A stretch of DNA of 19,878 nucleotides from a virus (taxonomy: Duplodnaviria; Heunggongvirae; Uroviricota; Caudoviricetes), in IMG/VR virus record IMGVR_UViG_2711768014_000002, one strand, 5' to 3'. The notes beneath the pieces are model-generated. The model worked only from the letters and a program-made list of their open reading frames with translations. It was not told the origin of the DNA and did no database searches. Both the position numbers and the translations under genes were made by a program. Shown here piece by piece: positions 1 to 19,621 of the stretch; the first letter of the stretch is position 1, and each line of letters starts with the position of its first letter.

Positions 1-3000
1 TCATACGCTATACCGTTAAAAATAATGGGCGGAATAATAATCTGGCGGTCAAAGTTATGATCATCGCTTATGGTGACTGTAACCGTCCCGTTTGGTGTTT
101 CCGTGTTACCCCACGTACCAGCCTGTTTCGGAAATGATTTGGATACAGCTTTAACGAAGTCACCTCTGACCTGAGTCGCCTCCAGCATGCCCTTAATCGT
201 ACAGTTTTCATTTACCGTGACATTGTTGAGCGTCCCGGCGTTCGCATTCACACTGCCACTGATATCCGCATTTTTAGCGGTCAGCTTTCCGTCCGGAGTC
301 AGGGAAAATGCCGATGGATTTCCACCGCTGGTAATGGTGGGGGCCGTCAGGCGTTTCAGGAACACGTCGTTCATGAATATCTGATCGCCCTGACCAACAA
401 ACATCGGTTTTGTGTTGCCATTCGCAGGATTAACCATCGCAATCCTGTCCGCCGCCAGCAGCACCTGACTCTGCATGCCGTCAGGGGTGTTCTCAATACC
501 GGCACCAATACCCGCGATATAAAGGCGTCCGTCCTGCATCTGCTGCAGCTTCACAGCCCACATGCTGTTCAGGTTATTATTTGTATCAACCTGAACCTTC
601 TGTATCTGCTGAATTGCCGCACTCTGGTCTTCCAGTTTCTTATTGACGGTCTGCGTGATTTCATTGCTGACATCCGTAATGGACGTCCTGATTTCAGCCA
701 GGTCAGGCGCAAGCTGACCGTTATCAATCTGCGTCCACAGCTCCTGAGCCAGATGGGTTTTCCCTATCTCGCCTTTGAAAAAATCCAGATAACCGGATGC
801 ATCATCACTCGGCTGACCAACAGCCTCCACGAATGCCGATTTGCCAACGGTGTTCACACTGCGGATATAAAAGTAATAATCATGGCCCGGTTTGATATTG
901 ATACTGGCGGCTATCCAGTACAGCGCCGTGCCAAGATAGCGTGCTGTGGTTTCAACCTGCCTGATATCCGCAATCCGCTTTTCCGAGAACCAGAACTCAA
1001 ACTGTACCGTCGGATCATAAACCGCAAGATGCGGCGTGGCGGTTATCTGAAAATAGCCCGGCGTCAGCTCAATCCGCGACAGCGCTGCCGGTGCGGCAAT
1101 CCGGAACGATACCGACGCCGGATCGCCCTGCTGCCCCCACGCATTTACTGCCCGGACTGTCAGCCTGTAGTTCCCCAGCGCCAGTTGTGTGAAGCGGTAA
1201 GTGGTTTCCGTCGTCCGGGCCGTGCTGACCAGNNNNNNNNNNNNNNNNNNNNNNNNNNNNNNNNNNNNNNNNNNNNNNNNNNNNNNNNNNNNNNNNNNNN
1301 NNNNNNNNNNNNNNNNNNNNNNNNNNNNNNNNNNNNNNNNNNNNNNNNNNNNNNNNNNNNNNNNNNNNNNNNNNNNNNNNNNNNNNNNNNNNNNNNNNNN
1401 NNNNNNNNNNNNNNNNNNNNNNNNNNNNNNNNNNNNNNNNNNNNNNNNNNNNNNNNNNNNNNNNNNNNNNNNNNNNNNNNNNNNNNNNNNNNNNNNNNNN
1501 NNNNNNNNNNNNNNNNNNNNNNNNNNNNNNNNNNNNNNNNNNNNNNNNNNNNNNNNNNNNNNNNNNNNNNNNNNNNNNNNNNNNNNNNNNNNNNNNNNNN
1601 NNNNNNNACCGTCAGGAACACGGCTCACTTTTACCTTCACGCCGTCGGTGACGGACTGGACCTCCACGCTGACCGGATTCCCCTGCCCGTCAACCAGGCT
1701 TATCAGCGTGGTGCCGGAGGATGGCAGCGTGATTTCACGGTCGAGCGTCAGCGTCCGGGTCTGGCTGTTCACCGCCAGCACGCGCCCGCCGGTGCGGATA
1801 CCGGCATAGTCATCATCGCAGATTTCAATGACATCGCCCGGTACATGACGAAGCCCTTCAGCACCCACGCTGAAATCCACGGTCTGCGTCTCCAGCAGTT
1901 CCGTTTTAATCAGCCACAGCCCGGCGCGGTGTGCCTGCCCCCGGCTGGTACAGCCAAAGGCATCCATCTTCGTGACGTTACGACCGTAACGGACAATGGC
2001 CTGCGTATCCTCCACAAGCTCTGTCGCCGTCTCCCAGCCGTTATCCGGGTCAATCCAGTTCACCTCAACGGCATTATGGCGGTCTTTCAGGGCGCTGAAA
2101 CTGTAGCGGAACGGCGCGCCATCATCCGGCATCACCACATTACTGCGGTTATAGGCCCACACCTTATCCGACTGTCGGTCCTGCACGAACGTCAGCGTCT
2201 GCCCGTTCCATACCGGCATACAGCGCATCGCCGAGCAGAAATCACTGAGCACATCCCACGCCTTGCGCTGTGTGGTCAGCCAGGCATTACAGGTGATGCG
2301 CGGCTCCGTGCTGCCAAAGCCGTCCGGCACCGACTGGTCACAGTACTGGCCGATGACATACAGCGCCCATTTATCCACATCTGCCGCACCAAGACGTTTC
2401 CCCATGCCATAGCGCGGATGGGTCAGCATATCCCACAGACACCAGGCCATGTTGTTGCTGTATGCCGGTTTTAACGTTCCGTCCCAGATACCGCTGTATT
2501 GCCGCGTCTGCGGATTATAGTTCGACGGCACCTGCAGAATGCGCCCGCGAAGATGATAATTACGGCTCACCTGCTGGCTGCCGAACTGCTCCGAATCCAC
2601 CTGTACGCCGACCAGTGCCGTGTTCGGGTAGCACTGTTTCACATCGATGATTTCGGTGTATGACGACCAGAGCGTTTTGTTCTGCAGCTGGTCTGTGGTG
2701 CTGTCCGGCGTCATTCTGCGCATCCGGATATTAAACGGGCGCGGCGGCAGGTTATCCACCACCACCGAGGCCAGATACTGCGAGGTGGTTTTGCCCTTAA
2801 TGGTGATGTCTTTTTCCGTCACCCAGCCACCGTTACGCTGTATCTGAACCAGCAGGCGAACTTCAGACGGATTCCTGTCTCCCTTTGAGGTGGTTTCCAC
2901 CAGTGCCTGTACACCGAAGGTAAAACGCAGTCGGTCAATGTTTGCCGACGTGATGGTCCGGGTGATCGGCGTGTCATATTTCACTTCCGTACCCAGCACC

Positions 3001-4641: not shown

Positions 4642-5293
4642 TTACTGCGAAAGTTTGTTAATGGAAAGGAAGCCGCCAAAGTTGCCGACGTTATTGCGAA
4701 ACTTACAGCCACTCAGGCATTTGCTGCATTTATCCTTCGTGATGTCGGACGTTGGCTGGTCATATTCATCCGCGACCGCCGGACCGTGATAACCGCACTC
4801 ATCGCCGCGATAGGTCCAGGTGCAGGTGTTGGCCAGCATGATACGTCCCGGAAAAACAGCGCCATCTGTTTCCGTCGGNNNNNNNNNNNNNNNNNNNNNN
4901 NNNNNNNNNNNNNNNNNNNNNNNNNNNNNNNNNNNNNNNNNNNNNNNNNNNNNNNNNNNNNNNNNNNNNNNNNNNNNNNNNNNNNNNNNNNNNNNNNNNN
5001 NNNNNNNNNNNNNNNNNNNNNNNNNNNNNNNNNNNNNNNNNNNNNNNNNNNNNNNNNNNNNNNNNNNNNNNNNNNNNNNNNNNNNNNNNNNNNNNNNNNN
5101 NNNNNNNNNNNNNNNNNNNNNNNNNNNNCTGTCGCCCCTGCCAGGTGACCGGCTCACCTTTTTCGTTCTGCTCATTACAGAAAAAATAACGTTCTCCACC
5201 GACCTCTGTCAGATCGATTTCCCAGAGCACCACGCTGGCCGACTGCTCCGCACGGGTGCATTCATTCAGTGTTTCCTGCCGGATATCCTGCAT
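4642..5293 (-). CDS. L: Minor tail protein L (interrupted by N run)
   Basis: N-terminal 55 codons (5293..5129, MQDIRQETLNECTRAEQSASVVLWEIDLTEVGGERYFFCNEQNEKGEPVTWQGRQ) and C-terminal 78 codons plus stop (4878..4642, PTETDGAVFPGRIMLANTCTWTYRGDECGY...FLSINKLSQ) flank the 250-nt N run. Both pieces match what I recall of lambda gpL (232 aa). L start overlaps M stop (ATGA). Confidence 0.9.
4879..5128. other. Run of 250 N (gap) inside L
   Basis: Directly visible. 250 is not a multiple of 3, so the two L segments are out of frame as written. It is also about 47 nt shorter than the 297 nt needed for a 232-aa L. Consistent with an estimated-length scaffold gap or mask. Confidence 0.99.
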
Positions 5294-18011: not shown

Positions 18012-18531
18012 TCAGCAACCCCGGTATCAGTTCATCCAGCGCGGCTGCTTTGTTCATGGCTTTGATGATATCCCGTTTCAGGAAATCAACATGTCGGTTT
18101 TCCAGTTCCGGAAAACGCCGCTGCACCGACAGGGGGATCCCGTCGAGAATACTGGCAATTTCACCTGCGATCCGCGACAGCACGAAAGTACAGAATGCGG
18201 TTTCCACCACTTCAGCGGAGTCTCTGGCATTTTTCAGCTCCTGTGCGTCGGCCTGCGCACGCGTAAGTCGATGGCGTTCGTACTCAATAGTCCCTGGCTG
18301 GAGATCTGTCTCGCTGGCCTGCCGCAGTTCTTCAACTTCCCGGCGCAGCTTTTCGTTCTCAATTTCAGCATCCCTTTCGGCATACCATCTTATAACGGCG
18401 GCAGAGTCATAAAGCACCTCATTACCCTTGCCACCGCCTCGCAGAACGGGCATTCCCTGTTCCTGCCAGTTCTGAATGGTACGGATACTCGCACCGAAAA
18501 TGTCAGCCAGCTGCTTTTTGTTGACTTCCAT
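17986..18531 (-). CDS. Nu1: Terminase small subunit Nu1
   Basis: 181-aa minus ORF (MEVNKKQLADIFGASIRTIQNWQEQGMPVLRGGGKGNEVLYDSAAV...), which I recognise as lambda gpNu1 with a few substitutions. Start is 189 nt from the predicted cosN end. Confidence 0.97.
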
Positions 18532-18555
18532 TGTTCATTCCACGGACAAAAACAG

Positions 18556-18668
18556 AGAAAGGAAACGACAGAGGCCAAAAAGCCCGTTTTCAGCACCTGT
18601 CGTTTCCTTTCTTTTCAGGGGGTGTTTTAAATAAAAACATTAGGTTACGGCGAAGAAGAACGGAAACG
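18556..18668 (-). promoter_or_regulatory. cosB: Nu1-binding sites R1, R2, R3 with intervening IHF-site (I1) region
   Basis: Read on the minus strand from cosN toward Nu1: R3 CGTTTCCGTTCTTCTT (18653..18668), an AT-rich I1-like segment (about 18620..18650), R2 AAAGGAAACGACAG (18597..18610) and R1 CTGTCGTTTCCTTTCTC (about 18556..18572). R1 and R2 form a 14-bp perfect inverted repeat with a 24-bp spacer. These match the cosB elements as I recall them from lambda. Confidence 0.75.
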
Positions 18669-18708
18669 CCTTAAACCGGAAAATTGTCATAAATAGCGAA
18701 AACCCGCG

Positions 18709-18720
18709 CGCCTTCCGCCC
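18709..18720 (-). other. cosN (predicted 12-nt cohesive-end segment), variant sequence
   Basis: Revcomp of 18697..18731 is GACAGGTTACG-GGGCGGAAGGCG-CGCGGGTTTTCG. The flanks are identical to lambda cos (right end ...GATCCGACAGGTTACG, left end ...CGCGGGTTTTCGCTATTTATGA...), but the 12-mer reads GGGCGGAAGGCG rather than the canonical GGGCGGCGACCT (from memory). Confidence 0.7.
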
Positions 18721-18756
18721 CGTAACCTGTCGGATCGCCGGAAAGGACCCGCAAAA

Positions 18757-18919: not shown

Positions 18920-19153
18920 ATGTCAACGAAGAACAGAACCCGCAGAACAACAACCCGCAACATCCGCTTTCCTAACCAAATGATTGAACAAATTAACATC
19001 GCTCTTGTTCAAAAAGGGTCCGGGAATTTCTCAGCCTGGGTCATTGAAGCCTGCCGCCGGAGACTGTGCTCAGAAAAAAGAGTTTCGCCTGAAGCAAACA
19101 AAGAAAAGAGTGACATTACTGAATTGCTCAGAAAACAGGTTAGACCAGATTGA
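18920..19153 (+). CDS. ybcW: Small ribbon-helix-helix-like protein (YbcW-like, function unknown)
   Basis: 77-aa plus ORF, AT-rich. TRNIRFPNQMIEQINIALVQKGSGNFSAWVIEACRRRL fits a beta-strand / helix / G-x-S turn / helix RHH (Arc/CopG-like) pattern. The N-terminal ~45 aa match what I recall of E. coli YbcW (DLP12 prophage) and the equivalent lambda right-end ORF; the C-terminal tail differs. Recognition is from memory, not a search. Confidence 0.6.
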   Translation: MSTKNRTRRTTTRNIRFPNQMIEQINIALVQKGSGNFSAWVIEACRRRLCSEKRVSPEANKEKSDITELLRKQVRPD

Positions 19154-19210
19154 AGCAATTTAGATAATCGTGCAGACTACGCCCCCTCATATCACATGGA
19201 AGGTACTACA

Positions 19211-19621
19211 ATGGCTCAGGTTGCCATTTTTAAACAAATATTCGATAAAGTGCGAAATAATTTAAACTATCACTGGTTTTATTCTGAACTAAAACGTCAC
19301 AATGTCTCACATTACATTTACTATTTAGCCACAGAGAATATTCATCTTGTTCTTGAAAACGATAATACGGTTTTAATAAAAGGACAGGGTAAGGTTGTAA
19401 ATGTAAGATTTTCAAAAAATAAATGCCTTATAGAAGCCACCTTAAAAGGATTCAAATCAGGAGAGTTATCATTTTACGAATACAGGAAAAATCTTGCTAC
19501 AGCAGGGGTTTTCAGATGGATTACAAATATCCACGAAAACAAAAGGTATTACTATACCTTTGATAATTCATTACTCTTTACTGAGAACATACAGAACACT
19601 ACACAAATATTTCCGCACTAA
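19211..19621 (+). CDS. ybcV: DUF1398-family protein (YbcV-like, function unknown)
   Basis: Plus ORF, very AT-rich. I prefer the second ATG at 19211 ([65 protein letters not shown]..., 136 aa) because GGAAGG precedes it by ~7 nt; the track ORF starts 5 codons earlier at 19196. Resembles E. coli YbcV and the lambda right-end ORF as I recall them (roughly three-quarters identical by eye). Confidence 0.6.

Follow-up and report, generated by a model that had tools for sequence, protein, structure and literature searches.

Phages lambda, 21, 434 and phi80 make up the lambda cohesive-end compatibility group, in which the overhang is GGGCGGCGACCT. Among lambda-like phages, differences at bp 7–12 of the overhang have been described as 'common', with cosQ, the overhang's left half and the nick-flanking CG pairs conserved (Feiss et al. 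2015, PMC4669245). N15 and phiD326 differ from lambda at bp 9 and 12, and Gifsy-1 differs at bp 8, 9 and 11 (PMC4669245). The N15 overhang is GGGCGGCGTCCG (bp 7–12 CGTCCG), followed by a different right flank, and the N15 record is annotated with 12-nt ends despite the changed bp 12.

The two halves of the overhang respond differently to mutation. Right-half mutations gave minimal phenotypes, whereas the symmetric left-half mutation G2C was deleterious, with a cost in yield of about 10-fold (PMC4669245). This asymmetry was put down to the nearness of the right half to cosB, where R3-bound TerS positions TerL and makes bottom-strand nicking insensitive to sequence (PMC4669245). The large subunit of lambda (TerL) gave equal yields with cosN-lambda and with cosN-N15, and thus displayed no cosN specificity (PMC4669245); these trials covered the two-substitution right half of N15 and point mutants only, and no right half with five substitutions. 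Chromosomes with a 2-nt mismatch between their ends were viable at a cost of about 4-fold, and segregation of lambda/N15 end-mismatch heteroduplexes at replication was seen (PMC4669245).

Cohesive ends of 7 to 12 nt are known in phages with lambda-like cos (PMC9303873). Natural cosN variation has been the subject of a dedicated survey (Vahanian et al. 2017, Virology 509:140), as described in the papers that cite it; by their account, the initial 4 bp are conserved, as are the 2 bp that flank. PMC12315714 gives GGGCGGCGCGCT as the cosN variant of mEp213/LLS. The literature that we searched contained no phage paper with the exact 12-mer described below, GGGCGGAAGGCG, or its complement; the survey of Vahanian et al. 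may list this allele.

The window, that is, the whole 19,878-nt stretch of viral DNA analysed here, corresponds to the left arm of a lambda-like prophage, which lies on the minus strand, and contains only the morphogenetic genes, cos and, past it, two small genes. In a tblastn search with the lambda proteins, Nu1 to J were all found in the lambda order, and every readable gene was full length. Amino-acid identity to lambda was 94–100% from Nu1 to I. J continues past the left end of the window.

The J product was 97% identical to that of lambda over residues 1–552 and 69% identical over residues 667–1043 (window 12–1232, minus strand). This mosaic joint in the receptor-binding region, as judged from the sequence, suggests a receptor specificity other than that of lambda.

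Two runs of N interrupt the window, one of 375 nt within J (1233–1607) and one of 250 nt within L (4879–5128). In lists of open reading frames they imitate a truncated J and a frameshifted L. The lambda segment replaced by the run in L is 298 nt long, and its length is therefore not preserved by the 250-nt run. That the prophage is truncated after gene I and L is frameshifted was ruled out, as J leaves the window at its edge and the disruption of L is the 250-nt N run. A 573-aa open reading frame on the plus strand (753–2474) is antisense within J, and its sole match was a zinc ribbon below threshold (20.3 bits, with the cutoff at 27). This frame is almost certainly no gene.

Beyond cosQ, and pointing away from cos, lie genes for a DUF3950 protein (77 aa, 18920–19153, plus strand) and a DUF1398 protein (141 aa, 19196–19621, plus strand), in the place where lambda has bor, lambdap78 and lambdap79. 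The two resemble ylcI and ybcV, which lie beside the cos of the cryptic prophage DLP12.

Direct reading of the minus strand gave the cosN 12-mer as GGGCGGAAGGCG, in the context ...GGGTCCTTTCCGGCGATCCGACAGGTTACG GGGCGGAAGGCG CGCGGGTTTTCGCTATTTATGACAATTTTCCGG..., where lambda has GGGCGGCGACCT (Table 1). A pattern search matched it once in the window, against 0.01 matches expected. The immediate flanks are ...GATCCGACAGGTTACG on one side and CGCGGGTTTTCGCTATTTATGA on the other. The same immediate flanks are present in phage DE3, a lambda derivative, in which GGGCGGCGACCT is annotated as 'cos site', and GGGCGGCGACCT also forms the first 12 nt of the lambda record (NC_001416). The sequence-only reading had claimed that an overhang block differs from lambda between conserved flanks; these two records agreed both with its reading of the window and with the lambda sequence that it gave.

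The block, which had been described as a 6-nt change from CGACCT to AAGGCG, contains five substitutions, C7A, G8A, A9G, C10G and T12G, as bp 11 is C in both. All five lie in bp 7–12. On the other hand, bp 1–6 (GGGCGG) and both flanking CG dinucleotides, which characterise the lambda-type cosN core (PMC4669245, PMC9026076), are the same as in lambda. The change is thus confined to the overhang of a lambda-type cosN in a lambda-like prophage, as had been proposed.

To place the block against the background divergence, the cos region was aligned with that of lambda and DE3 over 266 bp without gaps. Outside the 12-mer, 13 of 254 positions differed (5.1%). At this rate, the probability of five or more differences among the six positions of one hexamer is 2e-6, or about 5e-4 after correction for all 6-nt windows. 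The cluster of substitutions in bp 7–12 exceeds chance.

Table 1. Features of cos and the terminase genes in the window, with comparison to lambda.
Feature	Position	Strand	Remarks
Cohesive-end 12 bp of cosN	18709..18720	-	GGGCGGAAGGCG; bp 1 = 18720, bp 12 = 18709; aligned to the annotated lambda/DE3 cos site
Variable right half, bp 7–12	18709..18714	-	AAGGCG; lambda CGACCT; 5/6 differ
cosN sensu Murialdo and Feiss, 12 bp + 2 bp each side (PMC9026076)	18707..18722	-	CG, GGGCGGAAGGCG, CG
cosQ-like heptamer	18744..18750	-	GGGTCCT; 23 bp upstream of the top-strand nick; matches lambda in sequence and in spacing
cosB R3, Nu1/TerS binding site by analogy with lambda	18654..18668	-	CGTTTCCGTTCTTCT; bp 53–67 from the left end
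R3–R2 interval, corresponding to lambda IHF site I1 by position only	18616..18653		5/8 of the cosB differences from lambda
cosB R2, inverted relative to R3 and R1	18601..18615	+	CGTTTCCTTTCTTTT
cosB R1	18553..18567	-	CGTTTCCTTTCTCTG
Nu1, terminase small subunit, 181 aa	17986..18531	-	178/181 identical to lambda Nu1; PF07471, E = 2e-101
A (gpA), terminase large subunit, cosN-nicking enzyme, 641 aa	16086..18011	-	637/641 identical to lambda gpA

The remainder of cos was also of the lambda type. The GGGTCCT heptamer, which we take to be the 7-bp cosQ at lambda 48473–48479, was present upstream of cosN, and it adjoins nearly all of the 267 cos sites collected in this work. The 7-bp cosQ is highly conserved (PMC4669245). 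In about 30 of 113 AAGGCG cos sites, those with the left flank GGGTCCTTCCGGTGGGGTGGCCTGCCACG, the heptamer and the top-strand nick are 22 nt apart instead of 23 nt (L238, L261, L342, L343, L349 and about 25 others), which amounts to a natural 1-nt variation in spacing.

On the other side of cosN, bp 13–34 are the same as in lambda, and cosB contains no insertion or deletion relative to lambda and DE3. It has the complex arrangement of R3, inverted R2 and R1, followed by the TerS gene, which starts at 18531. R3 is the same as in lambda in sequence and in distance from cosN; its position has been given as bp 50–65 (PMC9026076). Eight further substitutions distinguish this cosB from that of lambda. 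The specificity of packaging has been assigned to R3 with T:A at bp 56 and to the recognition helix (residues 17–24) and wing (residues 31–39) of Nu1 (PMC9026076, PMC4669245). The first 47 residues of Nu1, which take in both elements, are the same as in lambda, as is R3, and the prophage therefore has the lambda packaging specificity by these marks.

Adjacent to cosB is a Nu1-type TerS followed by a gpA-type TerL with its nuclease domain (PF07471, PF05876 and PF20454; GpA_ATPase, GpA_nuclease). The earlier description of a near-identical A, Nu1 and cosB was thus accurate, with 637 of 641 residues of gpA and 178 of 181 residues of Nu1 conserved and all three R sites in place.

Like the window, N15, phiD326, Gifsy-1 and mEp213/LLS vary in the right half only, and keep the left half, the CG pairs and cosQ (PMC4669245, PMC12315714). 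N15, phiD326 and Gifsy-1 have two or three differences from lambda, in contrast to the five found here. The window also differs in that the variant adjoins what is essentially the terminase and cosB of lambda itself, while the TerL of N15 is only about 65% identical to that of lambda.

We interpreted this locus as the functional cos, cut as in lambda, of a lambda-like prophage whose cosN is a common natural allele, with a probability of roughly 0.88. The anatomy of the site, the recurrence of the allele and the lack of terminase co-variation were observed directly; the anchoring of the enzyme and the tolerance of the right half are carried over from published work on lambda.

By analogy with lambda, Nu1 would bind R3, R2 and R1, probably with IHF bending the DNA at I1, and thereby anchor gpA on cosN. 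The conserved left half-site would direct the enzyme to nick the top strand between ACG and GGGCGG. The bottom-strand nick, 12 bp away, would be placed mainly by the fixed distance to R3-bound Nu1 and less by the local sequence. If so, bp 7–12 would be free to change without harm to cleavage. At the next cos, cosQ would help to end packaging.

From the positions in lambda we infer nicks between 18721 and 18720 on the minus strand and between 18709 and 18708 on the plus strand. The ends produced would most likely be 12-nt 5' overhangs, GGGCGGAAGGCG at the left end and CGCCTTCCGCCC at the right end.

A displacement of the bottom-strand nick by the altered right half, giving an overhang of a length or register other than 12 nt, was also considered. 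The 22-bp cosN core of the window has four symmetric base pairs compared with five in lambda: pairs 3–10 and 6–7 are lost and pair 4–9 is gained. This change in symmetry could favor shifted cutting, as could the range of 7 to 12 nt among related phages mentioned above. On the other hand, the spacing of cosN and R3, by which the bottom-strand nick is placed in lambda, has not changed, the nick keeps its flanking CG pair, and the annotated ends of N15 are still 12 nt long with its changed bp 12. Shifted cutting was therefore judged improbable.

The sequence-only reading had raised the worry that the single-stranded ends 'must anneal'. Both ends of the chromosome are cut from copies of one duplex site, so that any change in cosN is self-complementary and annealing places no constraint on it. 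This concern accordingly falls away.

The stability of the ends was calculated using DNA parameters. The duplex energy was -18.6 kcal/mol for window ends paired with each other and -19.0 kcal/mol for lambda ends paired with each other, such that the matched window duplex is as stable as that of lambda by calculation. Lambda paired with N15, the viable case with two mismatches, gave -15.3 kcal/mol, and lambda paired with the window gave -9.5 kcal/mol. In the last duplex, pairing was predicted at bp 1–6 only, with the base beside the bottom-strand nick unpaired.

The cohesive ends of this phage would thus cyclise normally with each other, whereas with lambda-type ends just 6 of the 12 bases would pair. 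This pairing suggested that the two are likely incompatible, as judged by the calculation and as the sequence-only reading had proposed. With 5 of 12 positions different, and about -9.5 against -19 kcal/mol calculated, the phage is predicted to fall outside the lambda cohesive-end compatibility group.

To find the allele elsewhere, a 49-nt query centred on the block was used in megablast, in which each possible 28-nt seed holds all six variant bases. GGGCGGAAGGCG was found in 158 of 5,426 complete E. coli genomes, at 169 places, 16 of which were on plasmids of about 46 kb. Four E. coli genomes matched the full 49-nt query. A 111-nt cos query recovered 6,001 lambda-type cos places in 3,510 E. 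coli genomes. The allele thus accounts for about 3% of the lambda-type cos sites in complete E. coli genomes. Its description as 'unusual' was not borne out by this frequency, nor by the published variation of bp 7–12 beside a conserved terminase (PMC4669245).

The exact 25-mer GGGCGGAAGGCGCGCGGGTTTTCGC was present in 78 IMG/VR contigs and in 31 metagenome contigs sampled from gut, food and elsewhere. Two deposited genomes also contain GGGCGGAAGGCG at an internal position: PhiR46_1 (PV340565, recorded host ECOR13) and the phage-plasmid YDC107_1 (CP025712, Ravinvirus). Both resemble the window in having a lambda-type cosB and Nu1/A genes with the same 12-mer, and differ from it by two substitutions in the cosQ–cosN spacer (GGCAGGCTACG against GACAGGTTACG) and by other upstream genes. 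The cos is unannotated in both records, and a literature search found no publication on the PhiR phage series.

YDC107_1 is classed as Ravinvirus, yet it has a lambda-type cosB and Nu1, while N15 has a simple cosB and the overhang noted above. Many other E. coli plasmids of N15 size, about 46 kb, also have the variant cosN (H88–H90, H94, H101, H110, H111 and H116).

A scan of genome contigs with TACG-N11-V-CGCGGGTTTTCGC was under-specified, as about 50 chance matches are expected in 1.2e12 bases. It returned 75 matches, nearly all in unrelated MAGs, and only that of Escherichia sp. E1V33, which carries GGGCGGAAGGCG, was a real cos. Among about 110 contigs carrying the allele and the two phage records, none starts or stops at the 12-mer. 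An IMG/VR contig of 56,122 bp (3300045988_113976) contains two separate copies of the variant cos (L280 and L286). It could represent more than one genome unit, either a concatemer or a tandem prophage, or two adjacent elements.

The possibility of an assembly or consensus error in a GC-rich stretch, with GGGCGGCGACCT as the true sequence, had been put forward on a par with that of a natural variant. The local GC richness and the masked N runs elsewhere in the window are in keeping with such an error. The identical 12-mer, however, recurs with different flanks in hundreds of independent assemblies, which include complete genomes, metagenomes and phage isolates produced by different technologies. 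It was also found behind at least 17 haplotypes of the cosQ–cosN spacer on the left, and before three non-homologous types of cosB: the lambda type, the N15/Monarch-like GGGGACTGGTGG type and the GGGGAAAATCATGTCGG type. The chance of an error is negligible in our estimation. GGGCGGAAGGCG is a real and widespread natural allele, and of the two possibilities only the natural variant stands.

The range of natural alleles was determined by scanning IMG/VR for 12-mers in the frame ACG-GGGCG.......-CGCGGGTTTTCGC; the scan covered every class of allele but the one with bp 11 as its sole difference from lambda. The lambda hexamer CGACCT, with GGGCGG at bp 1–6, was present in more than 120 contigs, and AAGGCG, that of the window, in 78. 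The rest were rare: CAGGCG with T at bp 6 (three contigs); AGACCT, TGACCT and GAGCGT (two contigs each); and CAACCT, AAGCGT, AAGGCT, CGACCG, CAGACG, CTGACG and CGACCT with A at bp 6 (one contig each).

Within the scanned alleles, bp 1–5 were invariant, bp 6 rarely varied, and each of bp 7–12 varied, a pattern in agreement with the published rule for cosN. AAGGCT is one step from AAGGCG, and AGACCT is one step from the lambda hexamer. AAGGCG is thus the extreme member of a series of alleles and no one-off event.

These data also bear on whether the block is mutational damage in the disused cos of a defective prophage. Many lambdoid prophages of E. coli are cryptic, and L and J of the window are not fully readable because of the N runs. 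Decay, however, would scatter changes over the site. Instead, the same five substitutions recur, with cosQ, the left half-site, the CG pairs and the R sites intact, and AAGGCG has a single one-step neighbour in IMG/VR compared with its 78 exact copies. Furthermore, the allele is present in deposited phage genomes, and all the readable genes from Nu1 to J are of full length. A decayed cos was considered very improbable.

Whether the terminase changes together with cosN was examined next. The gpA of the window differs from that of lambda by T151S, D185E, L404R and T466I. Two of these four, L404R and T466I, are in the nuclease domain, beside the acidic residues 401 and 465, which we take to be active-site residues. 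In a first sample of 62 full-length gpA sequences, T466I was found in 10 of 16 carriers of the variant allele and in 8 of the 46 others (uncorrected p = 0.001). These observations would be expected if such changes in gpA retuned the nuclease to the new right half-site, making enzyme and site a matched specificity pair.

The association was gone in a larger sample of 104 lambda-like full-length gpA, de-replicated into 43 variant-linked and 41 canonical-linked proteins, and no residue was diagnostic of the allele. Six distinct gpA proteins among the 104 adjoin both alleles, and five identical Nu1 proteins are common to both. At one locus (L290), a gpA identical to that of lambda at 641 of 641 residues is paired with GGGCGGAAGGCG. 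L404R and T466I were also seen with the canonical cosN, and the published lambda TerL has no cosN specificity. Co-variation of gpA with the allele was therefore rejected, and a co-adapted terminase is hardly to be expected. The terminase does not co-vary with the cosN allele, and the occurrence of the same gpA proteins beside both alleles indicated that the enzyme need not change to live with AAGGCG.

The two alleles were also compared in their backgrounds. The spacer haplotype GATCCGACAGGTTACG was found with the canonical allele 99 times and with the variant 16 times, and GATCCGGCAGGCTACG was found 9 and 24 times, respectively. These are raw counts from a redundant database sample (clonal E. 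coli prophages), without phylogenetic correction. Both alleles were also found on non-homologous cosB types. The sharing of haplotypes violates the four-gamete condition within about 25 bp on either side, which suggested that the hexamer has been exchanged between backgrounds. The exchange could proceed by recombination in the short conserved flanks, or by mismatched cohesive-end heteroduplexes that segregate at replication.

One locus with a GGGGAAAATCATGTCGG-type cosB (L261, 6500–11503) has, after the variant cosN, a TerS-sized open reading frame of 181 aa, one of 349 aa, and two (223 and 1,131 aa) that match lambda I and J in size. The GGGGAAAATCATGTCGG type of cosB had been considered as that of a PICI satellite; this candidate was dropped, as L261 instead shows TerS followed by tail-gene-sized frames. 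Judged from the sizes of the frames only, L261 resembles a prophage that has lost a large segment reaching from the terminase large subunit to the tail genes.

The allele spectrum is dominated by two alleles that lie five steps from each other, and one-step neighbours of either are few. Simple neutrality of bp 7–12 would predict a diffuse scatter of alleles. The main explanation thus misses some constraint or process of exchange.

It is conceivable, although we think it unlikely, that GGGCGGAAGGCG and GGGCGGCGACCT are two selectively maintained cohesive-end compatibility types in one otherwise freely recombining pool of lambda-like phages and phage-plasmids; this reading is drawn from redundant database samples. 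The two types would then stay tight because a chromosome cut from a mixed concatemer would have one end of each type and cyclise poorly. The 12-bp allele could shift between backgrounds at the cohesive-end joint, through a mismatched-end heteroduplex that segregates at replication, as in the lambda/N15 case (PMC4669245). Two such types would explain the scarcity of intermediates, the presence of the block on identical flanks and before non-homologous cosB, and the identical terminases with both alleles.

The main reading remains that a well-understood site bears a frequent natural allele, AAGGCG, and varies where change is tolerated. It is an ordinary variant and calls for no new mechanism. 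With it, documented natural divergence reaches 5 of 12 differences instead of two or three, in an otherwise lambda background. The picture of the mechanism is little affected, since the allele fits the published view that anchoring by the small subunit, not the local sequence, places the bottom-strand nick.

There are also practical consequences. Annotation tools that seek the literal lambda 12-mer miss about 3% of the lambda-type cos sites of E. coli. Oligonucleotides designed for lambda ends, as in cosmid-style work, in vitro packaging or end ligation, would probably not anneal to the ends of AAGGCG phages.

A natural right half with five substitutions, beside a terminase with the lambda sequence, provides a ready test of the limits of right-half tolerance. 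The bimodal and reassorted alleles raise the question of whether the cohesive-end sequence may act as a compatibility barrier among lambdoid phages.
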